Positions 21,607 through 44,938 of a stretch of DNA of 50,154 nt are shown here, in pieces. Numbering within the stretch: the stretch's first letter is position 1; every line of letters starts with the position of its first letter. The position numbers and the translations under genes are program-made. The notes under the pieces were generated by a model that saw only the letters and a list, made by a program, of their open reading frames with translations, was not told the DNA's origin and searched no databases. This DNA is from a virus (taxonomy: Duplodnaviria > Caudoviricetes), in IMG/VR virus record IMGVR_UViG_3300037041_001770, positions 1 to 50,154 of that record; one strand, written 5' to 3'.

Positions 21607-21704
21607 TTACAAATGTAAATTTTTATGTTGACCTTTTTTTGCGAATAGGCGATAACTGCTTTGTCACCACTAACGGTAACAAAGCACAAGAAAAGAGTTA
21701 AAAC
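21607..21704 (+). promoter_or_regulatory. Early promoter-hairpin-leader cassette 1
   Basis: TTACAAATGTAA, TTGACC-N17-GATAAC, hairpin GCTTTGTCACC/GGTAACAAAGC, AGCACAAGA, RBS. Confidence 0.8.
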
Positions 21705-21896: not shown

Positions 21897-21992
21897 TTAC
21901 AAAAGAGAATTTATTTTCTTGCATTATCTACCTGCTACTGTATAACTATCTTTGTCACCACTAACGGTAACAAAGCACAAGAAGGAAAAAAT
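21897..21992 (+). promoter_or_regulatory. Early promoter-hairpin-leader cassette 2
   Basis: TTGCAT...TATAAC; 34 bp identical to cassette 1 (21950..21983 = 21659..21692). Confidence 0.8.
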
Positions 21993-23519: not shown

Positions 23520-23614
23520 TTACATTTGTAAATTAATGCTTGCATTATCTTTCCACTACTGTATAACTATCTTTGTCACCAATAACGATGACAAGCACAA
23601 GAAAGAAGAAAAAA
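23520..23614 (+). promoter_or_regulatory. Early promoter-hairpin-leader cassette 3
   Basis: TTACATTTGTAA, TTGCATTATCT...CTACTGTATAACTATCTTTGTCACC, hairpin TTGTCA/TGACAA, AGCACAAGA. Confidence 0.8.
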
Positions 23615-26843: not shown

Positions 26844-26859
26844 AAACAAGTGGGGAAGT

Positions 26860-27616: not shown

Positions 27617-27868
27617 ATGCGATTACACGAACAGACCGGCTATAAAATATTTGATGATAATAATCAGATGCTTCCAATTTCTACTGAGTCCATGACAGTT
27701 TCTGACGTTGTGGCATTTATGTCCGAGATATCAGGATTTAAGCTATTCACGCAGGTTAAGACCGAAAAAGAAATCCTTCTTTGGTCGCACTATGAACTTG
27801 ATAAAAATGAAAATTCTAGGGTGTTATTCAGACTCGTAGGCAATCCCGCCCCTTGTTGTGGTAGATAG
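27617..27868 (+). CDS. Hypothetical protein
   Basis: GGGGGA RBS before ATG 27617. Confidence 0.6.
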   Translation: MRLHEQTGYKIFDDNNQMLPISTESMTVSDVVAFMSEISGFKLFTQVKTEKEILLWSHYELDKNENSRVLFRLVGNPAPCCGR

Positions 27869-27919
27869 TGCGAACTGCTATAATACATAATAGTAATCAT
27901 TTTTTTAGGGGGCAAATTT

Positions 27920-29104: not shown

Positions 29105-29124
29105 ACCTCTCATATAATATAAAA

Positions 29125-29154
29125 TTCCCCCGTAAGCTCGACTTTACGGGGGAA
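29125..29154 (+). promoter_or_regulatory. RBS-occluding hairpin
   Basis: Perfect 11-bp stem TTCCCCCGTAA/TTACGGGGGAA ending 2 nt before ATG 29157; TATAAT at 29115. Confidence 0.65.
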
Positions 29155-29156
29155 CC

Positions 29157-29735: not shown

Positions 29736-30039
29736 TGGCGACACATTTGAATGCATTGTGATGCTAGATTTTTGCCTATCAATTGAGGTTACTGTTAGGC
29801 TTTTGGATGTTGATACCTGGGAGATGACAGGACCGCAAAAAGAACTAGGATTAGCTGCAAAGCTGTTTTTGAAGGATAAAATAGAGAATAAGAAGATTAT
29901 TTTAGACCCGCTTAAAAAAGATTCATTTGGCAGATGGCTTTCCCTAGCATATTTTAGGGGTGAAAATCTAAGTGAAATGATGCAAATCTACCAAAAGAAG
30001 ATTATAAAATCCTTAGAAACAAAAAACCTTATAGTTTAG
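29701..30039 (+). CDS. Thermonuclease (SNase-like)
   Basis: RVIDGDT, VRLLDVDTWE and DSFGRWL motifs. Confidence 0.9.
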   Translation: MDHSARVKRVIDGDTFECIVMLDFCLSIEVTVRLLDVDTWEMTGPQKELGLAAKLFLKDKIENKKIILDPLKKDSFGRWLSLAYFRGENLSEMMQIYQKKIIKSLETKNLIV

Positions 30040-30048
30040 GAAAACTCC

Positions 30049-30858
30049 ATGTTAACAATTGAAGCCGTTGTAGTTTGTTATAATTACTCTGATTTCCTTG
30101 AGGCGACCCTACCGCACAATATCCAAATGGTAGATAGGCTAGTCGTTGTTACTCACCCAAGCGATAAAATGACGGGAAAACTCTGTGATAAATATTCAGT
30201 TGATTGCATAAAAACTGAGATATTTCACGATGATAACGACAGATTCAATAAGGGTCGCGCAATCAATCTAGGGCTTCAAAATCTAAGGCATGACGGTTGG
30301 CTGATGCATCTCGATGCTGATATCCTTCTACCGCACCGCTTCCACAATGCTTTAAAAATGGCAAAGCTCGATACGACTTGTCTGTATGGTGCTGATCGGC
30401 TTAACACGGTCACCTATGAAAACTGGGAGAGACACAAAAATAGAAGCATCCCTCAGCACTCATGGAGATTCATGGTTAACCCACAAAAAGAATTCCCGCT
30501 TGGCTCACGGCTTCTTCACTTAGAGTATGGATATTGTCCTATAGGCTACTTCCAACTTTGGTCATCAAAAGCACGGCGACAATACCCGATAGTATGCGGT
30601 AGCGCCGAGCATTCCGATGTTTTATTTGCTACCCAATGGCCGAGAGAAAAGAGAGTTTTACTACCTGAATTTTTCGTTTATCACCTGGAAAGCGAGGATG
30701 TAAAAATGGGGGCAAACTGGGACGGGAGAAAAACCAAGGCTTTTGGCCCTGCTGGAACCCCGAATCCTGGCGAAATCCAGAATCCAGGGGGAAAAAAAAT
30801 CATTCATCCTTTCGGGAGTAATGGACTAGCCAAAGACTTTGGTAATCCAACTTATTAG
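30049..30858 (+). CDS. GT-A (GT2-like) glycosyltransferase
   Basis: VVCYNYSDFL, FNKGRAIN, HLDADI (DxD), GYFQL. Confidence 0.85.
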   Translation: MLTIEAVVVCYNYSDFLEATLPHNIQMVDRLVVVTHPSDKMTGKLCDKYSVDCIKTEIFHDDNDRFNKGRAINLGLQNLRHDGWLMHLDADILLPHRFHNALKMAKLDTTCLYGADRLNTVTYENWERHKNRSIPQHSWRFMVNPQKEFPLGSRLLHLEYGYCPIGYFQLWSSKARRQYPIVCGSAEHSDVLFATQWPREKRVLLPEFFVYHLESEDVKMGANWDGRKTKAFGPAGTPNPGEIQNPGGKKIIHPFGSNGLAKDFGNPTY

Positions 30859-31112
30859 ATAACCTTGAAGAGCTTTAGAAGCTTAAAGATGCTTCCAAGT
30901 GGCCCCGCTGTTAATTTCAAAGCTGCAATGATTTGCATGATTGCAGATAGTGCTTCAATCACTAAGTCTTTCACTTCGATAGGGTCCGCGTCTTTAAGCT
31001 CCTCAACTACTTCATGCCAGTTGATATTAACAAGCTCTACAACATTTTCTTTAATTGCTCTTAAAACCTTAAGAGTCTCAGAAATTCCTTTCTTTACTTG
31101 TACTTCTTCCAT
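30855..31112 (-). CDS. Hypothetical protein with hydrophobic C-terminus
   Basis: AGGAGG RBS. Confidence 0.7.
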   Translation of the reverse strand: MEEVQVKKGISETLKVLRAIKENVVELVNINWHEVVEELKDADPIEVKDLVIEALSAIMQIIAALKLTAGPLGSIFKLLKLFKVI

Positions 31113-31329
31113 GTATGCATCCTCCTTTTAAAAACGTGTCGATAATGGTCGAATTGACTGCTAGCCTCTTATCAATCTCAATCAATGAGCTGGTAAGCTT
31201 ATCGATGGTAATTGTAAAAGTTGTTTCAAGTTTGGTGATGCGAGAAAAGAATATTTTAGACAGAACAATAGTCGTTGTAACCACTCCAGAACTTGCCGTG
31301 ATAATATCCCGAATTGGTATATCTTCCAT
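31078..31329 (-). CDS. Putative holin-like/membrane protein (TM helix plus coiled coil)
   Basis: One N-terminal hydrophobic helix then a heptad pattern. Confidence 0.5.
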   Translation of the reverse strand: MEDIPIRDIITASSGVVTTTIVLSKIFFSRITKLETTFTITIDKLTSSLIEIDKRLAVNSTIIDTFLKGGCIHGRSTSKERNF

Positions 31330-31339
31330 TTTTTTAGCC

Positions 31340-32215
31340 TTATGAGTAGGACTCTATTTGATTTGCTAGAATCAATTTTCCCATAAAAAAAAGATCCCAA
31401 CCACAACAGCTTTCTAAGTGGCTCTCGATGCTCGACTTCTCCCATATCCAGCTATGGCCAAAATTGTTGAAATCAACTCGGTTTGATATTTCTATGAATC
31501 TTTCAATCATATCTAAGGTGAAACATCTTTTTGCAACAAACTCATAAAATATATTATCAGGCAATCTTTGGTGGGCTATTTCTGCAATCTTTTGGCTATA
31601 CTCACGGCTTTGATTTATTAAAAATTTTATGTAGGCTGCTACAACTTTTAAATGGAGCTGATAACCGAGGTCGGTTGTTTTTGCTTCTATGACGCTAAAA
31701 TCCCCGTCAAATCCGTTGAATTTTTTCATTTGATCATGTTTTTTCCAAAGCCGATATCCCCAAACTCTACCCATGAGCGCCCAATTCGCGGGGGTAATAG
31801 CCGAGCGAGAATCGGGGGCAAATTTATAAAGCAGCCAATGCCACTCTTTAAGGTTGTCGATGTAGTTCAGCCAGGAAATGGCGGCGCTTTCGGGGAACAA
31901 AACATTTGTCATCGCGCATAAAACGCCGTGCGACATATCGCGGGAGAAAAAAGCCTCATGACCTTCATTGTTTGTTTCCTTTCGGTGTGGTGAACGGTAG
32001 AACATACCATTTTCGCCCTGGGAGTCTAACACCGCATCAAGCGCCCAGTTATCATAGGAATGAATCACAGTTGATAAAAGCCCATTGAACAGCATGGCGT
32101 CACCGTCAGATTCTCCGAGGATTGCAAACTTTTTTCCATTTTTTGAGATGAGATAAGGCGCTTTTTCTTCGGCCTCTTTGACGATTTCTTTTACTTTATC
32201 GATGAGAACTTGCAT
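31340..32215 (-). CDS. Hypothetical helical protein, possibly host-derived
   Basis: GDAMLFNGLL...FYRSP...FSRDMSHG; AGGA RBS. Confidence 0.7.
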   Translation of the reverse strand: MQVLIDKVKEIVKEAEEKAPYLISKNGKKFAILGESDGDAMLFNGLLSTVIHSYDNWALDAVLDSQGENGMFYRSPHRKETNNEGHEAFFSRDMSHGVLCAMTNVLFPESAAISWLNYIDNLKEWHWLLYKFAPDSRSAITPANWALMGRVWGYRLWKKHDQMKKFNGFDGDFSVIEAKTTDLGYQLHLKVVAAYIKFLINQSREYSQKIAEIAHQRLPDNIFYEFVAKRCFTLDMIERFIEISNRVDFNNFGHSWIWEKSSIESHLESCCGWDLFFMGKLILANQIESYS

Positions 32216-32246
32216 GGCATTCCTTTACTACCATGCAGGGGCATGG

Positions 32247-32570
32247 TTAAAAATCGCAGTTTAATTTGTACCAGAACCATGGACCCATTTTACAATACCA
32301 CTGCTTAGGTTTCCACTGGTCGCAGATATGCACCGGCTCACCTTCGAAATACATTTTGAACTTTGTAGCTGTTTCAAATTGATAAGTCCCTTCGGTTTCA
32401 GCATCGCCAGGGTTAGGACCAAAGTAAAGAAGGGTTCCCGCAGCTCCAGCGGCTCCAATATCGCCCTCAAATTTTGTTTCAGCGTTCCACTTCGGGGCCT
32501 CACAGTAGTAAGTTGCTGAATACGAGTAAGAAGCCATGAGTAGAAACATAAACCCTATTAATTTTTTCAT
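32247..32570 (-). CDS. Secreted Cys-containing protein
   Basis: MKKLIGFMFLLMASYSYS-A signal; four Cys. Confidence 0.75.
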   Translation of the reverse strand: MKKLIGFMFLLMASYSYSATYYCEAPKWNAETKFEGDIGAAGAAGTLLYFGPNPGDAETEGTYQFETATKFKMYFEGEPVHICDQWKPKQWYCKMGPWFWYKLNCDF

Positions 32571-32733
32571 TGCACCATCTCCTTAAACAAAATAGATTGA
32601 ACATTCAGGGTACTAAAAAAACTTAACAAGCCATTGCCATGTTGATATTTTCAGCGTGGCATTTTACTATGATTAATTCACGTTACTCCATGTTTTCTAT
32701 TTATTGCTTTTCTTTTTTCAAAGGAAGGCATTT

Positions 32734-33033
32734 TTATTCTAAATCGGTTAGGCGCATCTCTAACATTAGATGATCGATATATTTTTGCTCGGTTTCAGCA
32801 ATTGGGTATTTTAGAACGATTGAAGCATTGGCTTGCATCATGACAGATGAGAGAAGAGTCAAAGCGGTATTTTTTTCTCTAGCATTTGGGCATAACGATT
32901 CAATTGTGATCGCTAGCCTTCTTACTTCCTGCCTTATAAGCTGCATTCTTTTAACAGCCTCCTCGTCACAATCATGATAAGAAAATCTATCGACAATCTC
33001 ATTTAACTTTTCTTTGCTTAGTTCTTTTTTCAT
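32734..33033 (-). CDS. Acb2/Tad1-hairpin family protein (putative cyclic-nucleotide sponge)
   Basis: DRFSYH...IESLCPNAREKNTALTLL..VMMQANASI matches the FxYH...CPxSRExSLA...MWANAxI family pattern. Confidence 0.75.
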   Translation of the reverse strand: MKKELSKEKLNEIVDRFSYHDCDEEAVKRMQLIRQEVRRLAITIESLCPNAREKNTALTLLSSVMMQANASIVLKYPIAETEQKYIDHLMLEMRLTDLE

Positions 33034-33313
33034 TTTTTGTTTCCTTTGAATATTCGATACCAATTAATAGATCAACGTCGGCTGGCGATTCTATAAAATA
33101 AAAAGGTCTATGACCATCAAGGTACATTTCAGTAAGCATGATTGAACCGTCATCATTGTCATAGTAGTACATTATTTTGTTGACGTTGACTCTTACATAC
33201 TTGTTTCCCTGCGCCTCAAGAATGATGAATTTATCTTTATTAGAGGGGCTTGGTTCCTGCGCGTGTAAAGATCCAACAAATGCTAAGGATAAAGTTAAAA
33301 TGAGTCTTTTCAT
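32999..33313 (-). CDS. Secreted hypothetical protein
   Basis: ATGA overlap with tad1; MKRLILTLSLAFVGSLHA-Q signal. Confidence 0.7.
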   Translation of the reverse strand: MKRLILTLSLAFVGSLHAQEPSPSNKDKFIILEAQGNKYVRVNVNKIMYYYDNDDGSIMLTEMYLDGHRPFYFIESPADVDLLIGIEYSKETKNEKRTKQRKVK

Positions 33314-33678
33314 TTGTTGCTTGTCCCTTCTACTTGTCGTCTTTCCCTGCTTTTTTTTCTTTGGTCTAACCAAAATAGGGCATTTTGAAGTCCTATAATC
33401 GCGTGAAAGTTTTCAATGCAAGGGAATTCTTCATTTAGTTCTGAAATTATCATCCTTGCTGCTTCTATCATGGTATCGATTTGACATCCATTTTTTCCAA
33501 ACTCTTTGATGGGGCCTTTTTGAATCTTGAATGAAATCATATTTAGATGTTCAGTAATAAAAATAGGAACCTCTTTTCGATACTGGTCGAATTCTTCCCA
33601 GCTCATACCGTCGGGAACTTTTCTAATAACCTTAAACCCGCCAATTTCTTCAATTCCTTCTAATACCTCTAAAGCCAT
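33310..33678 (-). CDS. tad1: Tad1-family anti-Thoeris sponge
   Basis: FKIQKGPIKEFGKNG...FPCIEN..AI..LQNALFWLDQR..SRERRQVEGT matches the Tad1 FQxG...G...REN...ALxWL..R...R..RxVxGT signature. Confidence 0.85.
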   Translation of the reverse strand: MALEVLEGIEEIGGFKVIRKVPDGMSWEEFDQYRKEVPIFITEHLNMISFKIQKGPIKEFGKNGCQIDTMIEAARMIISELNEEFPCIENFHAIIGLQNALFWLDQRKKSRERRQVEGTSNK

Positions 33679-33774
33679 TTTTTACCCTTTCTATCTCATA
33701 CGATGATTGTCAAAAAGCCCCCAAATGAGGAGCGCAACAATAATGATGCCAATTATATGAAGTATAATAATTTT

Positions 33775-34140
33775 TTAGCCTCTTTCATTTTTGAGAGTCA
33801 TTTGCTTTTCAATTCTGTTATCAAGGCGACTGATTTTAAATTTGATACGATCGGCTACTTCATCCATCCCGATGATCTTTGCTGCTTGAATTGCTGTGAT
33901 AAGCACGTCGGCAATTTCATCAGCTACAACCTGGTTATTTTCATTTTTGACGTAGTCAGGCGATGGCTGGTTGAGGTTATGGATAGCTGTTAAAAGCTCT
34001 AAACATTCCTCTTTACATTTATTGAGCTGGTGTTTGGTTCCATACCAGAAGATAGCCTTTTCCATAATGTCTAAAGTTGCTGGGTCGAATAGCGTTGATT
34101 GCAGCATTTCAGACCAAATAAAAGCTTTTTTTTCATTCAT
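33775..34140 (-). CDS. MazG-like NTP pyrophosphohydrolase
   Basis: KCKEECLEL and ADEIADVLI (EExxE/ExxD). Confidence 0.85.
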   Translation of the reverse strand: MNEKKAFIWSEMLQSTLFDPATLDIMEKAIFWYGTKHQLNKCKEECLELLTAIHNLNQPSPDYVKNENNQVVADEIADVLITAIQAAKIIGMDEVADRIKFKISRLDNRIEKQMTLKNERG

Positions 34141-34152
34141 AATTTTTTCCTT

Positions 34153-34338
34153 TTAAATCTCTTGAACATCAGCGTCATATGAGTCATTGGCTTCGCCAAT
34201 TTCTATTTCATCTGAACACTGATGACATAAGTTTGGGAAACAAGTATCAGCTTTTCTAATAGCTTGTTCCTTATTTTCAGCCTCTACTTTAACTAAAAAA
34301 GCACAATGATAGGGTATTGATACTAAATATTTAGGCAT
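34153..34338 (-). CDS. Small hypothetical protein
   Basis: GGAGG RBS before MPKYLVSI; VKVEAENKEQAI; CxxC. Confidence 0.65.
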   Translation of the reverse strand: MPKYLVSIPYHCAFLVKVEAENKEQAIRKADTCFPNLCHQCSDEIEIGEANDSYDADVQEI

Positions 34339-34444
34339 AAAACCTCCATAAATTAAACGCAAAAACTATCACAATTGTAAATATATGACATCTATTATTT
34401 TTAAGCCTACAATGCTATAATTATTAAAAAATGGAGGCTAATCG

Positions 34445-34999
34445 ATGGTAATTTATTTTACGACTAATGAAAAGTTTTACGCAAAGCTGTTAAGATGGAT
34501 CTTTTTAGAGCCAGTTAGTCATGTGGGTATGTGCCTTTATCCTACTGGTGTAACTCCCATAGTTATTGATTGCACCAAGCCTTATGGCAAAATTTATGCT
34601 TATAATGCTTGGAAAAAGAAACACAGCCCAATTTTTGCGGCTCAAATACCTATGTCCCTGGAAGATGAAATCAAATGCTTTGATACCGTCGCCCTTCGTT
34701 CTGTTATGCGCCCCTATGATTTCTCGGCCTATTTTCATGGCTTTTACCATGGCCTTAAATGGCGTCTATTTGGTACAAAGCTTCCTAAAAGAAACACTAA
34801 ATCGGACCATGAAAAGGATCTTTGTACAGAAATTTTCAATCCTATTAAGCAGCTTCTTCAAAAATATGGAATCGATCTTTATGGAGTTGATTTAGCAGCT
34901 ATGACGCCTCATATGCTGGCAAAAGAAATCTATAGGCAAACTGTCGGAAATGAAAATGTCACCTGGATAGGTGAGAAATTAGATACTCTTTCCCTTTAA
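34445..34999 (+). CDS. Permuted papain-like NlpC/P60 (YiiX-like) enzyme
   Basis: SHVG near the N-terminus, PYDF, LCTE later (His before Cys); own TATAAT and GGAGG. Confidence 0.75.
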   Translation: MVIYFTTNEKFYAKLLRWIFLEPVSHVGMCLYPTGVTPIVIDCTKPYGKIYAYNAWKKKHSPIFAAQIPMSLEDEIKCFDTVALRSVMRPYDFSAYFHGFYHGLKWRLFGTKLPKRNTKSDHEKDLCTEIFNPIKQLLQKYGIDLYGVDLAAMTPHMLAKEIYRQTVGNENVTWIGEKLDTLSL

Positions 35000-35114
35000 C
35001 TCTGATTGTGACGCCGGTATTTGATTTATATCTGAAGTGAGAAACCCAGTTGATTTGAGAAATCTTATAGCCAAGCGTCAATCCGATAATAAAAAGAAAA
35101 AGTGACATAAAACC

Positions 35115-35330
35115 TCACAAGTCTATTTCATAAAAATAACCATGGTCATCCTCTTCAAATCCTAAATCATCAATATCGCATACAATTTTTTGGCTACCAG
35201 TATCGAGCTGAACCGCGTTGTTTTTAAATGTTACGCAAGCCTCTTTGCAGCTTAGTTTATTTTCTCTTGAAAAACTGGTATCGCCGAACCTAATTAACGA
35301 GTTATTGTTGAGGTAGATTTTAGTGATCAT
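35115..35330 (-). CDS. Hypothetical protein
   Basis: GGAGG RBS. Confidence 0.6.
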   Translation of the reverse strand: MITKIYLNNNSLIRFGDTSFSRENKLSCKEACVTFKNNAVQLDTGSQKIVCDIDDLGFEEDDHGYFYEIDL

Positions 35331-35361
35331 TGTATAACCTCCAACTAAAAATTACGAACAT

Positions 35362-35391
35362 AAAAGTATGGACAAAATTATTTATCCATAC
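35362..35391 (-). terminator. Terminator after the amidase
   Basis: Minus strand GTATGGATAAA-taat-TTTGTCCATAC then TTTT. Confidence 0.6.
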
Positions 35392-35413
35392 CTCTATATT
35401 AAGTAAAATTTAA

Positions 35414-35848
35414 CTAAATGGAAATTAAATCTCTAATTACAGACATTTCAAAACCTGGACATTCGGTTTTAGCGAAGTCACGATGGGCAAACCATCGATT
35501 TATCGAAATGTTGTAGCGGTCAAAAATTACTTTATAAAGTTTTTTAAGTGACTTTATTTGTGCGGTAGTGGGTATTTTTGTTCCAATGTAACAAATCCCG
35601 ATTGAGTAGGAATTGGTCGGTTTACAGTGTGCGCCTTTTTCAACTTTGGGCGGTATTAAAGCTCTCCCATACTCAATAGCTCCACTTCTTCTTATGACGA
35701 TATGGTATCCAATCTTGTCAAAGCCCCGCTGCTTATGCCACTCATTGATTTCATCAGCTCCAAAGAAGTCAAAAAGCTCATTATTGGCGCTATAGTCGGG
35801 TGTAGCCGAACAGTGAAGAATGACAGCAGTTGGGGTTATAAGATCCAA
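35414..35848 (-). CDS. N-acetylmuramoyl-L-alanine amidase (T7 lysozyme-like endolysin)
   Basis: ILHCSAT, IGYH, GAHC, SIGICYIG and AHRD...ECPGF zinc-amidase motifs. Confidence 0.92.
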   Translation of the reverse strand: MDLITPTAVILHCSATPDYSANNELFDFFGADEINEWHKQRGFDKIGYHIVIRRSGAIEYGRALIPPKVEKGAHCKPTNSYSIGICYIGTKIPTTAQIKSLKKLYKVIFDRYNISINRWFAHRDFAKTECPGFEMSVIRDLISI

Positions 35849-35849
35849 T

Positions 35850-36140
35850 TTACCACTCCTTTGGCCCGATCATGCGCTTAAGGGCTTTTCTGGTATCGGC
35901 GTTTTTTACAAAATTTATCTGAATTGAACACTTATCGGGATCAACTTTAGCAATCCCAAAATACACTAGCGCCCTAACCCAAGATTCGGCTGGCCAACGC
36001 CTTTCACCGCGAAAGTAAAACCATGTGCTTGTAAGTTTGACGCCGCTATCTTCTGAGAAGTGGGCTAAATTAAATTTCTTCTCATTCTTTTTGCACCACT
36101 CTTTTTTGCATTCATCGATCAAAATATTAGGTGATTCCAT
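35850..36140 (-). CDS. HTH-like protein
   Basis: LAHFSEDSGVKLTSTWFYFRGERRWP resembles XRE-type HTH. Confidence 0.55.
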   Translation of the reverse strand: MESPNILIDECKKEWCKKNEKKFNLAHFSEDSGVKLTSTWFYFRGERRWPAESWVRALVYFGIAKVDPDKCSIQINFVKNADTRKALKRMIGPKEW

Positions 36141-36143
36141 GTA

Positions 36144-37043
36144 TTACGCTCCTATCTTATCTTTAACGCTAGATATCTTTTCATTCAGGCTATCTAGTGT
36201 GTTTTTTATATTATCTATGTATCCCTTATCAAGCTGCTCATAGCGTGAATTGAGTAGAAGTTCATTTAGCATGATTTCAGCTTCTGAGCACGCCCTAATC
36301 ACCCTTTGAGTTGTGATTATAGCTTCCAATAGTCTTTTATCGTCAACTTGCGGAGCGTGTTCTTTTTCTTTTTTAGATTTTTTAATCTGCTCCTTATTTT
36401 TAATCGCGTTCACATAATCTTTAATGATCATTTTTGTTTCTGCAATTGAAGTCCCTTTAACTTTTTCGAGTATTCGATTCTGTTCGTCAACTGGTAGCTT
36501 GACGATTTCATCAATTTGGCTAGAAGTGATTTCATCAGACTCATAAGAAAGCCTGACCTCTTCGCTCGCGCCTTCAACCCGCTTTGTAAGCTTCCTAACT
36601 TTATCCTCCGATATTCCTGTCTTTTCTGCTGTATCAGTTGCAAATGATTTAGGCTCTTCGTCATCTTTCGGCCCTCTTTTAGTGGATTGTGGATGAAGTA
36701 GCTCATAAATTCTGCGCCTTTCGGCTAGTGCTTTTTCAAAGTCCTTTTCATTCAGATTTTTAGCTTCAATATTTTCGTCGATATGCGCCAGTCTTTCATG
36801 CATCTCAGAATCAAATATTGTGATAAGAGCGGGGATTTTATCCCAACCAAGGTCTTTACAGGCTTGAAGCCTACGATGGCCGGAAACTATCTGAAATTCG
36901 CTGTTGACGGTAATAGGGTGATGAAGTCCAGTCATCAAAATACTTGCCTTGAGGGAATTGATATCGGCCTTGATGATAGAATTTCTTATATTCCAATTTT
37001 CTCTGATTTTAATATCACAGATGTTTATTTTTATGATTTCCAA
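36144..37043 (-). CDS. ParB-like protein (ParB N-terminal domain plus HTH)
   Basis: LKASI..GLHHPITV...IVSGHRRLQA...DEN; TAEKTGISEDKVR HTH. Confidence 0.88.
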   Translation of the reverse strand: MEIIKINICDIKIRENWNIRNSIIKADINSLKASILMTGLHHPITVNSEFQIVSGHRRLQACKDLGWDKIPALITIFDSEMHERLAHIDENIEAKNLNEKDFEKALAERRRIYELLHPQSTKRGPKDDEEPKSFATDTAEKTGISEDKVRKLTKRVEGASEEVRLSYESDEITSSQIDEIVKLPVDEQNRILEKVKGTSIAETKMIIKDYVNAIKNKEQIKKSKKEKEHAPQVDDKRLLEAIITTQRVIRACSEAEIMLNELLLNSRYEQLDKGYIDNIKNTLDSLNEKISSVKDKIGA

Positions 37044-37045
37044 CT

Positions 37046-37372
37046 TTATCCTCCAAATGCTTCAATGACAGTTTTTAAATCCCTTGCGATCACAACAAAT
37101 ACGCCAAACTTTTCTAGCTCTCTTATTTCATTTTTCTGGCCGTCCGATAGCCTCCCGATTTCTGTCTTAACTTCTATCGCAAAAAGCTTGCCTGATTTGT
37201 CGTTATAGATCCCGAAAATATCAGGTTGACCGGCGTTAGGGTTTTTTGCGAAATAACCACCCTTAATTAATTTTGGGCCTAGGTAGTTTTTCCAAACTTT
37301 ATGACCCTTGAGGGAGAGCCAGTCTAAGATTTCTTTTTGTATTTCCGACTCTTTTTGATGATTGATCGACAT
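37046..37372 (-). CDS. VRR-NUC domain nuclease/resolvase
   Basis: ESEIQ..I, GQPDI, AIEVKT..GRLS..Q. Confidence 0.88.
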   Translation of the reverse strand: MSINHQKESEIQKEILDWLSLKGHKVWKNYLGPKLIKGGYFAKNPNAGQPDIFGIYNDKSGKLFAIEVKTEIGRLSDGQKNEIRELEKFGVFVVIARDLKTVIEAFGG

Positions 37373-37886
37373 CTCGACTAAGTCCCTCGATAAGCTGTTG
37401 AGTTTTTCCACTAGGCAAAGCTTGGGTGAAATCATAGTTTGACCTCAAAAGACTTGCTGCATTGTCTTTGATCGTGTTTTGCATGTAAGATAGATTGGCG
37501 TCTGATATTGCATCAGAAAGATGTTGCCAGCCTCCCATAAGATTTACAACCTTCTCGCCTTCTGGTCCGATGTAGGCCATAGCTTCCTTATAGTTGTTCC
37601 AACCAAATTTGCGAATAGCGGCAATGATATTCATCGCAATGATACTTGAGCGCGTGGAGTCATCGATTTGACCTTTCCCAGCGACAAGATGAATTTCTCT
37701 GAGAGAGGGGAAGTGATCCGCTTTTTTAATGTGCCGATCAAGAGCAATCTTTAATTCGTCAAAAGAGTAATTTTTTAGCTCTTGAAAATAATACCAAGCT
37801 ACCTCTGGCTTTGTGAAATCCGGCGCTCTCCATGGCTGAATTGCTGCGTACGCTCGCATAAGTCCCATGAACTTTTCCCTGTCCAT
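37299..37886 (-). CDS. Helicase loader/inhibitor (G39P-like)
   Basis: WYYFQELKNY...ALDRHI...HFPSLREI; VVNLMGGW; downstream of the initiator. Confidence 0.7.
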   Translation of the reverse strand: MDREKFMGLMRAYAAIQPWRAPDFTKPEVAWYYFQELKNYSFDELKIALDRHIKKADHFPSLREIHLVAGKGQIDDSTRSSIIAMNIIAAIRKFGWNNYKEAMAYIGPEGEKVVNLMGGWQHLSDAISDANLSYMQNTIKDNAASLLRSNYDFTQALPSGKTQQLIEGLSRDVDQSSKRVGNTKRNLRLALPQGS

Positions 37887-37910
37887 AGCATCCTTTCAAC
37901 AGTGAAAAAA

Positions 37911-38861
37911 TCATTCGAAAGGATTTACCCAATCAGATGATTCAACTTCGTAAAATGGATTGTCTGAGTTAATTCTCTTTTTCAATTGCAATAGTATATT
38001 ATCAATTTTACGAAGTCCATTCTTACTTACGTTCAAAAGACTCATGGGTGAAATTGCGTTCTCTTTCCAAAAATCATTATTTTTTACGAACTGAAATAGG
38101 TTTTCTATCCCGCTTTCATTGAGAGAAACTGATTTAGCAATTTTCAATAGCCCCTGATAAAATTTTTCTGGTGAAATATTCTCTTTGAGCCATGGTGCTT
38201 TTACGAGTGTCCATTCATGCCAATTAATAGCCGTGCTCATAATTTGATCATTGATATTTTTCTCATGGGGAATTTTCTTCTTTGTAATAGTTGGGCTTTT
38301 TCGTTTTCGCTTGACAGGGGTATTTGATAGGTCTAGATCATGCATTACTTCTTCGAAGCTAGAACCTTCGGTTGGGTTTGAATCCGCTGCTGAAACTGAT
38401 ACTCGCTGCAAATCTTCGGAGTCTAAATCGCATTCCCCCAAGCTCGCTAGCGCGAGTAAATCGCTTCGCAAGCTACGCGATTTAGGGGCCCTCCTTGATA
38501 GGAAATAATCAAACAGTGAAATTAAAGATTCGAGCATTAAGATTTGGCTCGGCTTAGATACAGACTCACGGGCATGGCTGAGATAGTTCAAGAGTGGATC
38601 AAGGGAATCAGATACAGACTCTCGGCCTACAGGAAGGCCGATAGATTCATTGCACTCTGATGATGGTGACAGGGTAGAGATGAAAGAAGGATTCAATGAC
38701 TTATCGCGCATGGCGTCTGAATTGCTCAAAAAAACATCACTTTGAATCATCCTCACAAAGCCGCAATCTGATAAAAATTCTAAATATAAAAGTTCATGCT
38801 CTTCGAGTTTAAGTTCAATTCCATCGAAAGTTACGACGGTTTTTTTGCTTGTAGCTCTCAT
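37911..38861 (-). CDS. Putative replication initiator
   Basis: C-terminal DFWKENAISPMSL motif; upstream of the loader; Ser-rich middle with DNA repeats. Confidence 0.65.
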   Translation of the reverse strand: MRATSKKTVVTFDGIELKLEEHELLYLEFLSDCGFVRMIQSDVFLSNSDAMRDKSLNPSFISTLSPSSECNESIGLPVGRESVSDSLDPLLNYLSHARESVSKPSQILMLESLISLFDYFLSRRAPKSRSLRSDLLALASLGECDLDSEDLQRVSVSAADSNPTEGSSFEEVMHDLDLSNTPVKRKRKSPTITKKKIPHEKNINDQIMSTAINWHEWTLVKAPWLKENISPEKFYQGLLKIAKSVSLNESGIENLFQFVKNNDFWKENAISPMSLLNVSKNGLRKIDNILLQLKKRINSDNPFYEVESSDWVNPFE

Positions 38862-38901
38862 TTTTTCCTCAAATGTTTGTAATTATTGATAAATATTTTG
38901 G

Positions 38902-38942
38902 TATGCCATAGTTTCGCGTGATTCACGCGAAACTATGGCATA
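38902..38942. repeat. Perfect 41-bp palindrome (20-bp arms, 1-nt centre)
   Basis: TATGCCATAGTTTCGCGTGA-T-TCACGCGAAACTATGGCATA. Confidence 0.95.
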
Positions 38943-38988
38943 GTTGAAAGAATTCATTTTTACATTTGTAATTTAAAAAAGTAATTTA

Positions 38989-39753
38989 TTATTTTTCTGG
39001 TTCATTTTCTGATGGGATTGCTTCGGGAAGTTCAAAAAGAAGTTTTTGCAGAACTTTCCATCGACCTTTTAATCTTTCTTCCCTAGTCTCTGCACTTATT
39101 ATAGTTATGATCTGATCAAGCGGCTTTCCGGTGAGCGCAATCCAATCGACGTTCTCAGTTGTCGAAACGAGATTTATCATCTCTTCTTTCATTTTTGTAA
39201 CTTTTTGCTGCTCGGCTTCACTGATTATTTCTTGAGCATGTTGTTGCTCTTGATTCGGTCGCTGCTTACCTTGATTTGGTCGCTGTTGCTGCTGTTGTCT
39301 CTGCTGATTATCGTGGTAGACCATATCATCATGCAAGGGTGAATCCTTGTCGGGATCTTCAATTTCAGAAACGGGAATCATGAACACTTGAAAGAGCGCG
39401 TATTTGTGGGCAATGCTCATGCACTTGTTTGTCGTTTTATCGCTTCCATAATCCGCGCTCTCGCCCCAAACGGTACATTCAACGAATGATCCATCGGGCG
39501 CACAAAACTTGTAAGAAATTTCTAAAATCTGATGCCAACCCTCTTGGCCCTTCGCACTCTTTATTTTTTCCCGAAAAATGATCTTTTTGATTTCAGGAAG
39601 GCAAAAAATCCCGTGCTTCTTTACTGCACTATGAACCGCGTTGTAAACGTCATCAACTCCCCTAAACTTATATCCCTGTGAATTATTTTTTTGCATCTTA
39701 TCCACAGCGCCGATATCAGCCAAAACCGCACCCATTAACTTGTAAATTTCCAT
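38989..39753 (-). CDS. erf: ERF-family single-strand annealing recombinase
   Basis: GYKFRGVDDV, GESADYGSDKTTNKCMSIAHKYAL...F.IP...DPD. Confidence 0.9.
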   Translation of the reverse strand: MEIYKLMGAVLADIGAVDKMQKNNSQGYKFRGVDDVYNAVHSAVKKHGIFCLPEIKKIIFREKIKSAKGQEGWHQILEISYKFCAPDGSFVECTVWGESADYGSDKTTNKCMSIAHKYALFQVFMIPVSEIEDPDKDSPLHDDMVYHDNQQRQQQQQRPNQGKQRPNQEQQHAQEIISEAEQQKVTKMKEEMINLVSTTENVDWIALTGKPLDQIITIISAETREERLKGRWKVLQKLLFELPEAIPSENEPEK

Positions 39754-39784
39754 TTTTTCTCCTAATTTTGATTGTCTTAAGCTT

Positions 39785-39818
39785 TTACAAATGTAATTTT
39801 ATGTAGCTATTTTGTCAA
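39785..39818 (-). promoter_or_regulatory. Sigma70 promoter of the ERF/replication operon with an operator over -10
   Basis: Minus strand TTGACA-N17-TACATT; the TTACATTTGTAA palindrome (39785..39796) overlaps -10. Confidence 0.75.
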
Positions 39819-39914
39819 CACAAATGATAACAAACAGCCAAAACCTAAAATACTTTTCAGCACATATATTTTTATCTCTATTGACTCCGATAGATTTATA
39901 ATTGTAAAACACCA

Positions 39915-39987
39915 ATGAACTAAAAAATTTCCTGGTTTTAGTCTTGTGCTGAGGTTCGATTGTTTTACAACAATCGGGCCTTTTTTT
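39915..39987 (+). ncRNA. Candidate small RNA ending in an intrinsic terminator
   Basis: TTGACT and TATAAT/TAAAAC upstream; no ORF; UCUUGUGCU then hairpin AGGTTCGATTGTT/AACAATCGGGCCT plus T run. Confidence 0.4.
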
Positions 39988-40057
39988 ATAATTGCAAATG
40001 GCGCAAGACTCGCATAGAAAGAGCATGATATTATTTAATCTGAAAAGAGGTAAAAAA

Positions 40058-40381
40058 ATGACCGCCAACGATATTAAAAATGAATTTCAAACTATGCAAA
40101 TAATTGCAAAAAAACTGCTTAATTTATCTGATGAACAAAGGGCGCGGGTTATCAACTTCCTTCTTCAGTCAGTTTCTGAAGAAAGCAGCGACGCTCAAAA
40201 TGAAATCAAGACAATTGGGTTTTGCCTTTCCAAACTTGAGAAGCTTGGCAAAGACGAAAGCAACGCCGTTGTTAAATTTCTGGTTGATCGGTTCATGGCG
40301 ACACGCTGCGAAAAATCAGAAGTAGAGACAAGTGAGCCAGAAGCAGAAACCGAGCTTTGGGAAGACTTAGAGGCAAAATGA
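40058..40381 (+). CDS. Hypothetical protein with an internal duplication
   Basis: GAGG RBS; two similar helical units (LLNLSDEQRARVINFL / LEKLGKDESNAVVKFL). Confidence 0.7.
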   Translation: MTANDIKNEFQTMQIIAKKLLNLSDEQRARVINFLLQSVSEESSDAQNEIKTIGFCLSKLEKLGKDESNAVVKFLVDRFMATRCEKSEVETSEPEAETELWEDLEAK

Positions 40382-40845
40382 GCGAAGTAAAAGCTGCAAC
40401 TCTGCAACAATTCATTGCAGCAAAAACCCTCGATAATCTTGACAGGGTTCTCCTTAAGTATTCAGTAGAATATCCCAGCCTTGACGCGGTCAAACTTTCA
40501 AAAATGCTTAACATCGGTGTGAAAGTTATTCGTTCAAGGCGAGGTGATCCCCTTTTCCAGTTAGAGCTTCAAAGACTATCGCGTACAACTGACTCACTTC
40601 TTGAAGAAGCTGCAAAAAAAGCAACGCTCAGACTTATTGAGCTGATTGACTCCTCAGACCCAGACATCGCCCTTGCCGCGTGCAAGCTGGCACTTACTCG
40701 TAAGATGCAAGAACTTCCCGAAAACACTCAGCGCCGCATCATTGCATATCAAACAAGCATCAGCCCCGACGGAACTTTGTTACAAGAGATTGTACAAGAA
40801 GAGCTTTCTGGGCATATTATTGATGTTGAGTGTTCATCCAAATAA
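40378..40845 (+). CDS. terS: Putative terminase small subunit
   Basis: N-terminal HTH and helical core; upstream of terL; ATGA overlap. Confidence 0.65.
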   Translation: MSEVKAATLQQFIAAKTLDNLDRVLLKYSVEYPSLDAVKLSKMLNIGVKVIRSRRGDPLFQLELQRLSRTTDSLLEEAAKKATLRLIELIDSSDPDIALAACKLALTRKMQELPENTQRRIIAYQTSISPDGTLLQEIVQEELSGHIIDVECSSK

Positions 40846-42664: not shown

Positions 42665-44938
42665 ATGGACGAAACCCCAGTAACTCGCAAAATTGACAAA
42701 ACCGCTAGCCTTGTCGCAAGCTATCAAAAGCTTGCTAAAACCATATCAGACATGGAATCCAAGGCGTACGATATCGTAAACGATTTTGAAAAAACGGGTG
42801 GAGTTTGGAACGAAGAAGAAAAAGCCTTTTTAGACATGATGACACTCAAGGGGCTTTTCACTTCTGAACACTGGGTTTTCATCATTGTCGATTTGATAGC
42901 AATGAAAATCTGTAATCAAAAGCTTCAGGTTTTTAGGAAAACGGTTACAGATGGAAGCGAAAAAATAGAGCCAGCTTTAAATCATCCCCTTCAAAAAGTT
43001 ATCGATAATCCAAACCCCATGATGAGCTACGCTGATATGATGTATAGTCATACGGTTGATTTAACTCTTCTTGGTAATGCTCTACTTTGGAAAGGGCCTC
43101 TTAGTTCAAGCTTGTGGCCAATTCCCGCTGATACGGTGATGCTCAGTTTCGATAAAATGGAAACGCTCATAGGATATAATCGCTATAATTTTAGGGGATA
43201 TCTTGAGCCTCTTCAGCTTGTAAAATACTTCCCGCTCAATGAAATCATTCACAACAAAAAACCAAATCCATCTAATTACTATTGGGGCCTCTCTCCTTTT
43301 ATTCCAGGCAGGAAACCAATTTTATTTAACCGCTTTACAAGCGAGTATTTGAACAACTACTATTTAAAAGGCGCGACCCCTGGGCTGTCATTAGAAATGT
43401 CTAACGAAGCCAACGAAAAAAACGCAACGAGACTTTTACGTTCCTTTGAAGCAGCCTATACGGGTCGCGCCAACCAAAGAAGAACCCTTGTTTTACCAAA
43501 GGGTGTAACAGCAAAGCAGATAGCACACACCCTAGCCGACCAGCAACTAAAAGATTACCTCATAGCCAATAAGGAAGATATTTTAGCACTTCTTAAGGTT
43601 CCCAAGCATGAAGTAGGGCTTCAAACCGGCGGCTCACTTGGTTCTGAAGAGTATAAAACAGCTCTCAAAAACTTCTGGGCTTCAACTCTTGTGCCGACCC
43701 AAAACCTTATAGCAAGCGGATTTAACCGAGCCTACAAAGACCTTTTAGGGGATAGTTATTTTTGTGCGTTTAATAACGATAATGTTGAGATTTTGAAGGA
43801 AAACGAAGTTGAAAAGTCCAATATTGCGGTAGGACTTTTAAAGACTCATACCATCAACGAAGTAAGGGCAAAGCTCTATCAGCTTACCCCACTTCCTGGC
43901 GGTGATGAGATTCCAGGCGCTTCAACGCAGCAATACCCGACTTTCAATCTTCATAGTCAGGCCGAAGCGATAAAATCAAATGATGAGATAACCGCACCAA
44001 TCGAAAAAAAAATAGAAAACGCTGCTGATGTTGTCATCAAAGCCAATGGCGACTGGTTTGAAGGTCATAAGCAAAAAATCAAAGAGGCAATAGAGAAACC
44101 AGAAATTGAGCTGCAAAAAGCGGCTATCAAACTATTTGCCGATCAATCGGTTAGTGTTATAAAAAAGCTAAATAAAATACTTGGAAAATCAAAAGCAAAC
44201 TACGAAATAAAAAACGATACCTTTATAAAACAACTGATATCAAAAGAAGTTGGTGCTTACTTAGCTGATTGGGTTAGTCATTATAAAGATATTGGTGACG
44301 GTATTGCTGTTTCTGGATGGGTTTTAGCGGGTGACTCTCCCGTCAAAGTTGACGAACTTAACATTGAAATCAGCGATAAATATAAAAAAGAGCTAAATAA
44401 TGAACTTGAGCAAAGAGCTAAAAACAGTTTTGCTTATATGTCTCAGACAACCACAAATGATATTTTTAGCATCATAAAAAGAGGTATCGACGACTCAAGC
44501 ACGGGCCAGCAAATAGCCGAAAAAATCAGCGGTATCTTTGCAAATCCCGAAAAAATGCTAGGCAGGGCGCAAACTATCGCAAGAACCGAATCTCTATCAG
44601 CTCTTTCAATGGGAAAAGCAAAGCAGTTTCAGCAAGCTTCAAAAGTCATTCTAGACTTAAAAAAACTTTGGATGAGCACAAACGACAATCGCACGCGGGG
44701 CAACCCGTCCGGATTATATCCCGATAGTGATTCAGACCATTGGGATCTTCACGGTCAAGTGGTTGATCATGACAAAAAGTTTGTTGACCCTCGCTCAAAG
44801 GAACAACTATCTTTTCCTCGTGATCCAGCGGGTTCGGCTAGTGCGGTGATAAATTGCCGGTGTACTTGGATCACTTTACCGGCCAAAGAGATGGATCAAT
44901 TAATTAAAAGCGAAGCAGAGGTAAAACCGAATGACTAA
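42665..44938 (+). CDS. HK97-family portal fused to a MuF/SPP1 gp7 head morphogenesis domain
   Basis: PNP..., GNA, YWGLSP, LKVP portal motifs; C-terminal RAQTIARTE...KLW...D.RTR...H...INCRC. Confidence 0.9.
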   Translation: MDETPVTRKIDKTASLVASYQKLAKTISDMESKAYDIVNDFEKTGGVWNEEEKAFLDMMTLKGLFTSEHWVFIIVDLIAMKICNQKLQVFRKTVTDGSEKIEPALNHPLQKVIDNPNPMMSYADMMYSHTVDLTLLGNALLWKGPLSSSLWPIPADTVMLSFDKMETLIGYNRYNFRGYLEPLQLVKYFPLNEIIHNKKPNPSNYYWGLSPFIPGRKPILFNRFTSEYLNNYYLKGATPGLSLEMSNEANEKNATRLLRSFEAAYTGRANQRRTLVLPKGVTAKQIAHTLADQQLKDYLIANKEDILALLKVPKHEVGLQTGGSLGSEEYKTALKNFWASTLVPTQNLIASGFNRAYKDLLGDSYFCAFNNDNVEILKENEVEKSNIAVGLLKTHTINEVRAKLYQLTPLPGGDEIPGASTQQYPTFNLHSQAEAIKSNDEITAPIEKKIENAADVVIKANGDWFEGHKQKIKEAIEKPEIELQKAAIKLFADQSVSVIKKLNKILGKSKANYEIKNDTFIKQLISKEVGAYLADWVSHYKDIGDGIAVSGWVLAGDSPVKVDELNIEISDKYKKELNNELEQRAKNSFAYMSQTTTNDIFSIIKRGIDDSSTGQQIAEKISGIFANPEKMLGRAQTIARTESLSALSMGKAKQFQQASKVILDLKKLWMSTNDNRTRGNPSGLYPDSDSDHWDLHGQVVDHDKKFVDPRSKEQLSFPRDPAGSASAVINCRCTWITLPAKEMDQLIKSEAEVKPND

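Follow-up and report, generated by a model that had tools for sequence, protein, structure and literature searches.

A probable short RNA with a conserved promoter and a strong terminator upstream of the packaging genes of a phage

Introduction

What does the junction between two divergent operons of a phage genome specify: an RNA that acts on genes elsewhere, a control element for the operon that follows it, or both? The window, i.e., the whole stretch of 50,154 bp analyzed here, is a complete phage genome with direct terminal repeats, and the junction in question separates the leftward ERF gene from a rightward operon whose identity as packaging/structural (late) comes from its large terminase subunit and portal genes. 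The original prediction placed on the + strand of this junction a transcription unit of about 70 nt whose RNA would silence several early operons in trans; the promoter and terminator of such a unit are backed by relatives of the phage, but the silencing of early leaders is unsupported. The genes bordering the junction are:

38989-39753, - strand: gene for the ERF protein, left neighbor of the junction
40058..40381, + strand: opening gene of the rightward packaging/structural operon; product of 107 aa, without a family match
40378-40845, + strand: next gene of the rightward operon
41190: large terminase subunit, in the rightward operon
42665: portal, in the rightward operon

The source phage is uncultivated and comes from sediment, and its lineage is apparently non-lambdoid. 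In isolated phages its portal protein has distant matches only (21.6-27% identity among the matches listed).

Results

The junction and its relatives

The junction had been described as an intergenic region free of open reading frames, and effectively it is: its sole long frame, an 89-aa ORF with a TTG start (39799-40068, - strand), is without a counterpart in L005, a relative that is 78% identical. Relatives L003 and L004 were found in IMG/VR by their large terminase subunit, and L005-L009 in metagenome contigs. Only L005, L008, L009 and L003 cover the junction, the last two being distant relatives, and none of the four extends to the early leaders; the form that combines RNA and terminator is confined to three sequences (window, L008 and L005). 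Blastn of positions 39400-40400 against INPHARED returned no relatives, nor did searches of IMG/VR with the ERF protein and the proteins of 20114-20881 and 25458-26291. DNA patterns for elements described below (the leader with its 9-mer, the leader operator alone, the seed region and the conserved block) had no match in IMG/VR, and the large terminase subunit query and the block pattern had none in GTDB genome contigs. The 15 sequencing runs listed for the phage included none of RNA. Where contigs of X3, X8, X10 and X11 cover 21550-40060, none of the best-supported letter differences falls in the leaders or the seed; as 1,217 further differences lie outside that subset, this has no bearing on how conserved leaders and seed are.

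A promoter shared with relatives

The features of the small + strand unit, in order, are:

39881..39886, + strand: -35 element TTGACT; ATTGAC(T/A) is invariant in the window, L008, L005, L009 and L003, and the spacer after it diverges
39903..39910, + strand: TGTAAAAC, with the -10 element read as TAAAAC (39905-39910), 18 nt after the -35
39917..39987, + strand: predicted RNA of ~71 nt, its start placed 7 nt after the -10 and its end within the T run
39928..39933, + strand: TTTCCT, an unpaired motif resembling an anti-Shine-Dalgarno sequence; TTCCT is kept in L005 and L008
39940..39950, + strand: conserved island AGTCTTG(T/G)GC, which includes the seed and is unpaired in the predicted fold
39951..39987, + strand: intrinsic terminator (stem 39951-39982; core 39953-39964 / 39969-39980; loop TTAC; T7 at 39981-39987)

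Promoter-like hexamers had been noticed here, and TTGACT is indeed one, but the nearby TATAAT (39897-39902) cannot be its partner because the spacing between them is just 10 nt; the conserved partner is TAAAAC. Every one of the five sequences spanning the junction (window, L008, L005, L009 at 182-210 and L003 at 1602-1631) has the arrangement ATTGAC(T/A)-N15/16-(T/C)GTAAAA, and within the window TTGAC-N16-18-GTAAAA has a single occurrence. Retention of both hexamers in 5/5 junctions across diverged spacers suggests a promoter of the unit's own, as would be expected of a trans-encoded small RNA. Since the conserved -10 is without its final T, it went unlisted in our consensus promoter scan; and because the -10 (TAAAAC/G/A) never ends in the usual T, the strength of this putative promoter is uncertain, and the promoter rules of the host may differ.

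In L003 and L009, only 35-40 nt separate the same promoter from the opening ORF of the corresponding rightward operon, which includes homologues of the 40378 gene, the 41015 gene and the large terminase subunit. Neither relative has a + strand terminator in the region searched (0 sites in L003 1400-2200 and 0 in L009 1-1800, where there is 1 on the - strand). By its position, the unit appears to sit on the very promoter that drives the packaging operon in relatives, a circumstance that the original prediction had missed. Two features of a late leader are thus found: a promoter directly upstream of the late operon, as in L003 and L009, and, in the window, a terminator between that promoter and the 40058 gene. 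The body of the RNA might have been the decayed 5' end of the small membrane-protein ORF located after the promoter in L003 and L009, but we rejected this origin, alignments being at null level (116-374 of 500 shuffles equal).

A strand-specific terminator

The hairpin stabilized by G-U pairs and the U run that had been read from the window were borne out: the stem has 14 pairs, is followed by T7 and is the longest + strand stem among 24 terminator-like sites in 20500-40400. The segment 39925-39990 folds at -17.7 kcal/mol, and the 76-nt RNA at -20.0 kcal/mol (z = -3.86), with an equally good fold in only 1/200 shuffles. Because the G.U pairs of the hairpin turn into C.A mismatches on the opposite strand, the direction of the element can be read from its fold. 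A continuous stem forms only on the + strand in the window, L008 and L005, and the - strand folds, mismatched internally, are weaker (-16.1 vs. -20.0 kcal/mol in the window, and -19.3 vs. -26.8 kcal/mol in L005). In L008 one G.U pair has become G-C, and L005 has at the same place an unrelated hairpin of 12 pairs with T5, only 16/50 aligned hairpin columns being identical to the window. An intrinsic terminator, another hallmark of a trans-encoded small RNA, has thus been kept as a structure, and on the + strand specifically, in 3/3 members of this clade.

From the positions of promoter and terminator we infer both that an RNA is produced and where it starts and ends; a short RNA of ~70 bases is probably made upstream of the packaging genes. 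Its body is identical to that of L005 in 23/41 columns. The seed, TCTTGTGCT (39942-39950, + strand), is identical in L008, and the island of L005 reads AGTCTTGGGCC, with 7/9 seed positions kept and 2/9 changed. No Rfam family reached its gathering score with the predicted RNA, and a search by E-value gave five matches that were all far below threshold (E 0.72-4.3; 10.9-20 bits vs. 54-140).

Sequence between the terminator and the late genes

The 70 or so bases that follow the terminator contain or adjoin several promoter-like elements:

39964..39992, + strand: TTTACA-17-TATAAT, overlapping the hairpin and T run; 11/12 consensus matches in the window
39990..40040, no strand assigned: strongly conserved non-coding block with three candidate promoters
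39992-40020, + strand: candidate promoter TTGCAA-17-TAGAAA, read by eye; kept in the window, L008 and L005
40005-40034, + strand: candidate promoter AAGACT-18-TATTAT, read by eye; kept in the window, L008 and L005
40054-40025, - strand: candidate promoter TTTACC-18-TATCAT, 9/12 match; same place in L005

The first of these is probably not the ancestral late promoter, being unconserved (TGTAAT in L008, CTGTTT in L005). The block at 39990-40040 is the best-conserved non-coding stretch, with 44/51 columns identical in L005 and 49/51 in L008. A long-range helix between AGTCTTGTGC (39940-39949) and GCGCAAGACT (40001-40010) was rejected; it is predicted in the read-through RNA of the window and L008, but not of L005.

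Discussion

A proposed termination checkpoint before the late operon

We tentatively prefer, at somewhat less than an even chance, a reading in which the ancestral promoter of the packaging operon now makes a terminated leader RNA of ~71 nt and forms a termination checkpoint like those associated with lambda 6S RNA and StxS. A sigma-70-type promoter (TTGACT, 18 nt, TAAAAC; 39881-39910) would start transcription near 39917, and most transcripts would end at the intrinsic terminator (39951-39987), at a length of about 71 nt and with about 70 nt still to go to the first late gene (40058). Because promoter and terminator stand before the late genes, the unit would act on the late operon in cis, either as a checkpoint close to the promoter or as an insulator, and the small leader RNA would be its by-product. 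Late expression might then be reached by either of two routes, suppression of the terminator or a second, regulator-dependent promoter in the block 39990-40040. This reading is favored by the facts that the promoter has been kept, that the terminator has been rebuilt from unrelated sequence, and that in L003 and L009 the same promoter would feed the operon directly. The relatives thereby appear to record a change, with the promoter directly before the operon in some and a leader and terminator added in others.

Suppression of the terminator would presumably amount to regulated read-through. A scan of 41 distinct proteins of 21705-44938 against Pfam and/or PHROGs gave no match to an antitermination family, whether of the Q type or another; most of these proteins are without any family, and a novel antitermination factor among the family-less small ORFs is possible. 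The sole hint of DNA binding among the scanned proteins is a weak HTH match in the protein of 26282-26521 (79 aa).

According to a recent preprint, lambda 6S RNA derives from the late operon, ends at a terminator except when Q intervenes, binds Hfq, and has a few partners, one of them in a lambda early operon; StxS is there given a length of 74 nt (bioRxiv 10.1101/2024.10.31.621285). As described in another report, StxS is a regulatory sRNA that arises by early termination of the transcript from the always-active late promoter, PR' (PMC7547250). The junction resembles the PR'-tR'/6S region of lambda in having a promoter directly before the late operon, a short non-coding leader, a strong intrinsic terminator and a small RNA, the release of which is predicted here. 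It differs in that the predicted RNA is ~71 nt, against 194 nt in lambda, and has neither sequence nor Rfam similarity to 6S; that no Q-family protein occurs among the 41 scanned; that the unit lies in a divergent junction beside the ERF operon, not downstream of a Q gene; and that conserved sequence after the terminator may hold a second promoter. StxS is close in size to the RNA predicted here, but its targets are stx1AB and rpoS, its source is a temperate lambdoid phage of E. coli, and the two are without sequence similarity. If the unit is transcribed as predicted, an apparently non-lambdoid lineage also places a terminated leader RNA between a promoter and its late genes.

A possible free-standing small RNA gene

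Since the conserved block holds plausible promoters, the late operon may bypass read-through altogether, in which case the unit would be a free-standing sRNA gene with other targets, i.e., host or phage mRNAs such as the ERF start region, and the late promoter would lie in 39990-40040. We consider this unlikely. Its promoter and terminator are conserved, the unpaired UUCCU and AGUCUUG have been kept, and the block after the terminator exceeds its neighbors in conservation and has both TTGCAA-17-TAGAAA and AAGACT-18-TATTAT in all three phages. Among the predicted partners of the RNA, the ERF start region ranks second (-20.6 kcal/mol), and action on host mRNAs has a precedent in PreS of lambda (bioRxiv 10.1101/2024.10.31.621285). 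Against this, no target stands out clearly enough to be named, conservation of the RNA body is poor (the 23/41 columns shared with L005), and the ancestral promoter would need to have been retained just for the RNA while a new late promoter arose.

Complementarity to the early leaders

The original claim is that the seed, UCUUGUGCU, aided by GUUUUAG or UUUCCU, pairs with AGCACAAGA beside the ribosome-binding sites of the three early leaders and so silences several early operons at once. If true, it would matter more than a checkpoint, with one small RNA shutting off several early operons; we regard it as quite improbable. The elements involved are:

21659..21692, + strand: leader module 1, an operator-like palindrome plus AGCACAAGA (21683-21691), upstream of the ATG at 21705
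21950..21983, + strand: leader module 2, with AGCACAAGA at 21974-21982, upstream of the ATG at 21993
23571..23604, + strand: leader module 3, with AGCACAAGA at 23594-23602, upstream of the ATG at 23615
39818-39790, - strand: ERF-operon promoter TTGACA-17-TACATT, 10/12 match; conserved in L005
39785..39833, no strand assigned: ERF promoter region with the palindromes TTACAAATGTAA (39785-39796) and TTTGTCA-N10-TAACAA (39811-39833), both operator-like and overlapping the promoter

The complementarity itself is as described. The seed (39942-39950) is the exact complement of AGCACAAGA at 21683, 21974 and 23594, it is unpaired and directly 5' of the terminator hairpin, and the additional pairs noted beside it are present (GTTTTAG with TTAAAAC in leader 1, and TTTCCT with AGGAAA in leader 2). 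The genome has four matches to AGCACAAGA, three on the + strand and the one on the - strand at 39942-39950, where 0.46 are expected, and four were reached in 0/100 shuffles. However, leaders 1 and 2 are 100% identical over 34 nt and leaders 2 and 3 are 88% identical over 56 nt. The three are copies of one duplicated promoter/operator module, and the three 9-mer matches therefore count as a single independent one: the fourfold count beats chance through leader duplication only, and the antisense copy itself does not. All three leaders have six 9-mers in common, and the + strand has exactly one antisense copy of any of these, where chance predicts 1.35 in the whole genome, 0.10 within its 3,828 non-coding bases and 0.008 for 39754-40057.

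Other comparisons point the same way. Local alignments of either strand with each leader scored no better than the null, being equaled by 35 to 159 of 300 shuffles, and when targets were ranked genome-wide with RNAduplex, the leaders fell at 356-684 of 12,530 windows. Among 67 start regions, the leaders did rank 4, 5 and 8 (-18.0, -17.9 and -16.5 kcal/mol), but the start regions of the amidase, ERF and 31329 genes score better; and although only 1/200 shuffled seeds matched or beat their rank sum, that figure concerns a site that had been picked for its match. In L005, no part of the RNA body is better conserved than AGTCTTG(T/G)GC, but the seed there is TCTTGGGCC, its 3' part lies inside the terminator stem, and with window-type leaders the L005 RNA has a complement of just 5-6 nt (-9.4 to -11.4 kcal/mol). 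A precedent exists in that 6S RNA has one partner in a lambda early operon by RIL-seq (bioRxiv 10.1101/2024.10.31.621285). Once duplication and the genome-wide search are taken into account, the 9-nt match is within chance, so that target complementarity beyond chance is lacking, and at present trans-silencing rests on this single match.

Control of the early genes may have another basis. The leftward ERF-operon promoter had been placed correctly, and it and the early promoters share highly significant operator-like palindromes, i.e., a putative DNA operator, which had been overlooked and which would already offer protein-based control. For understanding how this phage controls its early genes, the two operator-like palindromes offer a better-supported starting point than trans-silencing does.

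The precedents cited with the prediction are the P1 c4 and P4 CI RNAs, which arise by processing of longer transcripts and form part of immunity systems in temperate elements. Each of these RNAs uses a short seed to bind sites that recur in phage leaders, thereby controlling several downstream genes, and seed and target co-vary among relatives. The phage analyzed here is alike in that three leaders have the complementary 9-mer, though as copies of one module. It differs in that the RNA would be a primary promoter-to-terminator transcript, and that no lysogeny or immunity genes, whether of integrase or repressor families, were recognized among the 41 proteins scanned.

Both roles could be combined, the RNA gating the packaging genes in cis and also silencing the three early leaders, in which case an L005-type pair would have co-varied, UCUUGGGCC with GGCCCAAGA. 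This would make an RNA-based early-to-late switch in a phage that has no recognizable lysogeny module or antiterminator; as it takes in the trans-silencing discussed above, we hold it to be a similarly doubtful prospect.

Possible antisense transcription or an inverted leader

The sar RNA of P22 and the oop RNA of lambda are primary transcripts of ~70 nt that lie in regulatory intergenic regions, run from a promoter of their own to an intrinsic terminator, and regulate in cis an overlapping mRNA to which they are fully complementary. The predicted RNA is like them in size, in having its own promoter and terminator and in its regulatory intergenic site; the difference is that an overlapping leftward transcript is here only a weak possibility (9/12 promoter match). 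Such a transcript would start from the distal leftward promoter at 40054-40025 and give the ERF operon a long leader fully complementary to the RNA. The element (TTTACC-18-TATCAT) is found at the same place in L005; it would converge with the + strand promoter across a distance of ~100 nt, and the hairpin between them is a terminator on the + strand only. We nevertheless think this very unlikely: the proximal ERF promoter (39818-39790) is better, at 10/12, and conserved, 9/12 matches are no commoner than in shuffles (7 vs. 4.2 expected; 65 vs. 58.4), and the -10 of L008 reads TAACAT.

The alternative offered with the original prediction is that AGCACAAGA on the - strand marks a fourth, inverted leader copy, as part of a leftward leader; it might also be a site that protein binds in double-stranded DNA. 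We hold this to be the least probable of all. The leaders' order of hairpin and then 9-mer does recur on the - strand, where AGCACAAGA comes 2 nt after a hairpin, and a related GCGCAAGA lies at 40001-40008, but local alignment finds nothing similar past the 9-mer, GCRCAAGA is not significant as a DNA motif (7 vs. 3.58 expected; 7 reached in 8/100 shuffles), L005 has an altered motif, the leader operator has its true fourth copy elsewhere (39811-39833), and the wobble pairs and T run indicate the + strand in all three phages.

Anatomy of the candidate RNA unit

The window record is a complete 50,154-bp virus genome with direct terminal repeats, and DNA nearly identical to it derives from sediment metagenomes. 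Querying phage records by blastn with positions 39400-40400 returned no match, the portal protein has 21.6-27% identity to phage proteins among the matches listed, and, on sequence comparison, the window phage is without a close isolated relative.

Layout of the window genome
40058, across the record end, to 21565 (+): packaging/structural operon, with the large terminase subunit at 41190 and the portal at 42665
21.7-30.9 kb (+): block of mostly small unknown genes
30.9-39.75 kb (-): leftward block, its last genes being ParB-like, VRR-NUC and ERF (38989-39753)

A 304-nt gap separates the divergent ERF gene and first gene of the packaging operon, and it contains the candidate unit, a predicted RNA at 39917-39987 (+). 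The original prediction described this gap as ORF-free, and its single long frame (89 aa, - strand) is indeed without counterpart in L005, a contig from a related phage. As also predicted, AGCACAAGA occurs in the leaders of three early genes, L1, L2 and L3 (21683, 21974 and 23594, +), and at 39942-39950 (-), a count of 4 against 0.46 expected that was reached in 0 of 100 shuffles. On the + strand its complement, the seed, is followed by a 14-pair hairpin (-17.7 kcal/mol) and T7, a 76-nt RNA having z = -3.86 in a shuffle comparison, and the additional leader pairings that had been named are all present. The -35 hexamer stands, but TATAAT at 39897 cannot serve as its -10, the spacing being only 10 nt. 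Overall, the sequence facts were right while their significance was overstated.

Promoter and terminator in related phages

Seven contigs of relatives were found with the large terminase subunit, among them L008 (93% DNA identity) and L005 (78%), which span the gap, and L009 and L003 (61% identity, large terminase subunit), which reach the equivalent junction. The pattern ATTGAC(T/A)-15-16 nt-(T/C)GTAAAA, which has a single occurrence in the window, is present with differing spacers in 5/5 sequences (window, L008, L005, L009 and L003). By alignment, the terminator is conserved in structure, not in sequence: one G.U pair becomes G-C in L008, and the L005 region, although identical at only 16/50 aligned columns, forms a hairpin of 12 pairs, two of them G.U, and then T5. 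In the window, L008 and L005 alike the stem is continuous on the + strand only, and this strand-specific rebuilding is the strongest evidence for a + strand transcript that would end at the terminator. Comparison of promoter and terminator thus makes a small + strand RNA unit in the gap likely, as originally proposed.

L003 and L009 share this promoter and the rightward operon, whose first ORF lies 35-40 nt downstream of the promoter. This ORF (L003 from 1669 onward, MDQIDKK; L009 from 248 onward, MDKIDKR) encodes a small hydrophobic membrane protein conserved in both, and it occupies the place of the window's non-coding RNA after the conserved promoter; the operon carries on with a homologue of the 40378 gene and with the large terminase subunit. 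A terminator scan of these two contigs found no + strand terminator between promoter and operon. Because they have the same promoter and operon without it, the RNA-plus-terminator segment is best read as a window-clade addition to an ancestral packaging-operon promoter. Their divergent operon has a nuclease-like gene first and ERF after it.

Positions 39990-40040 (51 nt) are the best-conserved non-coding stretch (44/51 columns in L005 and 49/51 in L008); for comparison, 23/41 columns of the RNA body are identical in L005. TTTACA-17-TATAAT over the hairpin (11/12 consensus) is not conserved, reading TGTAAT in L008 and CTGTTT in L005.

Candidate promoters in the conserved block
Within 39990-40040 (+): TTGCAA-17-TAGAAA and AAGACT-18-TATTAT, read by eye
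Conserved block (-): TTTACC-18-TATCAT, from a consensus scan of the window and L005

Since the block contains such candidates, the late operon may have its own regulator-dependent promoter there, or the block may have a different role. An inverted repeat, AGTCTTGTGC / GCGCAAGACT (39940-39949 / 40001-40010), lies on both sides of the terminator; for the read-through RNAs of the window and L008, not for that of L005, it is predicted to extend the hairpin, giving a long helix.

A possible termination checkpoint for late genes

The explanation that we favour, tentatively, is that the ancestral packaging-operon promoter would start transcription near 39917 and that the majority of transcripts would end at 39981-39988, making the unit a promoter-proximal termination checkpoint for late genes from which a ~71-nt leader RNA is released. 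Small phage RNAs and terminated late leaders of this kind are already known, the closest systems being lambda PR'-tR' with 6S RNA, and StxS. Lambda 6S RNA is terminated without Q action, is bound by Hfq and has one lambda early-operon partner by RIL-seq (bioRxiv 10.1101/2024.10.31.621285), and StxS arises when the PR' transcript terminates early (PMC7547250). We do not claim membership of the Q-dependent family, because no Q-type protein was found (antiterminator, integrase and repressor families were not found among 41 proteins scanned) and the late genes may have an independent promoter downstream.

The leader match and its alternatives

The three leaders are copies of one module: L1 matches L2 at every position over 34 nt, and identity between L2 and L3 is 88% across 56 nt. 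Natural variants recombine at these modules: a contig from sequencing run X10 joins 21659 to 21951 via a 33-nt repeat, deleting module 1 and its gene, and one from run X8 has the gene between 21707 and 21889 swapped for 266 other letters, both leaders being retained.

All three leaders have just six 9-mers in common, of which a single antisense copy in total is found on the + strand, where 1.35 would be expected in the genome, 0.10 in its non-coding DNA (3,828 bases) and 0.008 in the gap. Local alignments of the candidate, on either strand, with each leader score 17-21, which between 35 and 159 shuffles out of 300 match or exceed, and the null means are 16.8-18.7. Genome-wide target ranking with RNAduplex (the 36-nt unpaired RNA part against 12,530 windows, both strands) went against the leaders, whose best windows rank only 382 (L1), 356 (L2) and 684 (L3). 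Among 67 start regions they rank 5, 4 and 8, with the amidase, ERF and 31329 genes ahead; a rank sum equalled by only 1/200 shuffled seeds restates the 9-nt match, the site having been picked for it. A free-standing sRNA with other targets is unlikely. The best non-self hit of the RNAduplex scan (-33.5 vs -27.1 kcal/mol for the next) is the complement of a portal-gene stretch at about 43660-43698 (+) that contains TCTTGTGC at 43687 and is similar to the predicted RNA's 5' part; the similarity may be chance.

Because the leaders are copies of one module, and given the chance expectations, null-level alignments and scan ranks, the 9-nt match is suggestive at best, which leaves the silencing role first assigned to the RNA unproven. 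The L008 seed is identical to the window's, and the L005 region, AGTCTTGGGCC, keeps 7/9 seed positions, the last bases lying inside the terminator stem. With window-type leaders, exact complementarity of the L005 RNA covers only 5-6 nt and the energy is -9.4 to -11.4 kcal/mol, the window RNA reaching -16.5 to -18.2; silencing in trans would therefore require that leaders have co-varied in L005-type phages, and scans of sequence collections yielded no leader from a relative.

DNA sites offer another, protein-based means of control. The palindrome TTTGTCA-N10-TRAYAA has exactly four copies (21660-21682, 21951-21973, 23572-23594 and 39811-39833; expected 0.00), three of them placed shortly after the rightward early promoters and the fourth covering the -35 of the leftward ERF promoter; kept in L005 with one change, the palindrome is a likely binding site of one regulator for all four promoters. 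TTACA-N2-TGTAA likewise has four exact copies (0.07 expected), two upstream of the L1 and L3 promoters (21607-21618, 23520-23531), one overlapping the ERF promoter -10 and start (39785-39796) and one in the gap that precedes the 37911-38861 gene (38960-38971). By their motifs, the early and ERF promoters have operator-like sites in common, which would make an RNA silencer less needed; weak HTH matches are seen in a 79-aa protein encoded at 26282-26521. Silencing of the early leaders in trans is a bold reading and an improbable one. A cis-antisense RNA directed at a distal leftward transcript is more doubtful still, and an inverted leader copy or DNA site, given alignments at null level, is hardly credible.

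Other features of the genome

Strong terminator-like hairpins also occur at 21551-21577 (+; 12 pairs), at the structural operon end just before leader 1, and at 29156-29123 (-; 13 pairs), within the rightward block, separating the protease gene from its downstream neighbour. This 'early' block carries genes for a GH5 cellulase-family protein (25458-26291), a papain-family cysteine protease (27920-29104; E 8.8e-42) and a family-2 glycosyltransferase (30049-30858), all on the + strand, an unusual cargo in a 50-kb phage. At 32734-33063 (-) a 109-aa protein with an Acb2/Tad1 hairpin domain (Pfam PF24729, E 1.3e-10) is a candidate sponge of cyclic-nucleotide defence signals, and a MazG-like protein is encoded nearby at 33775-34140.
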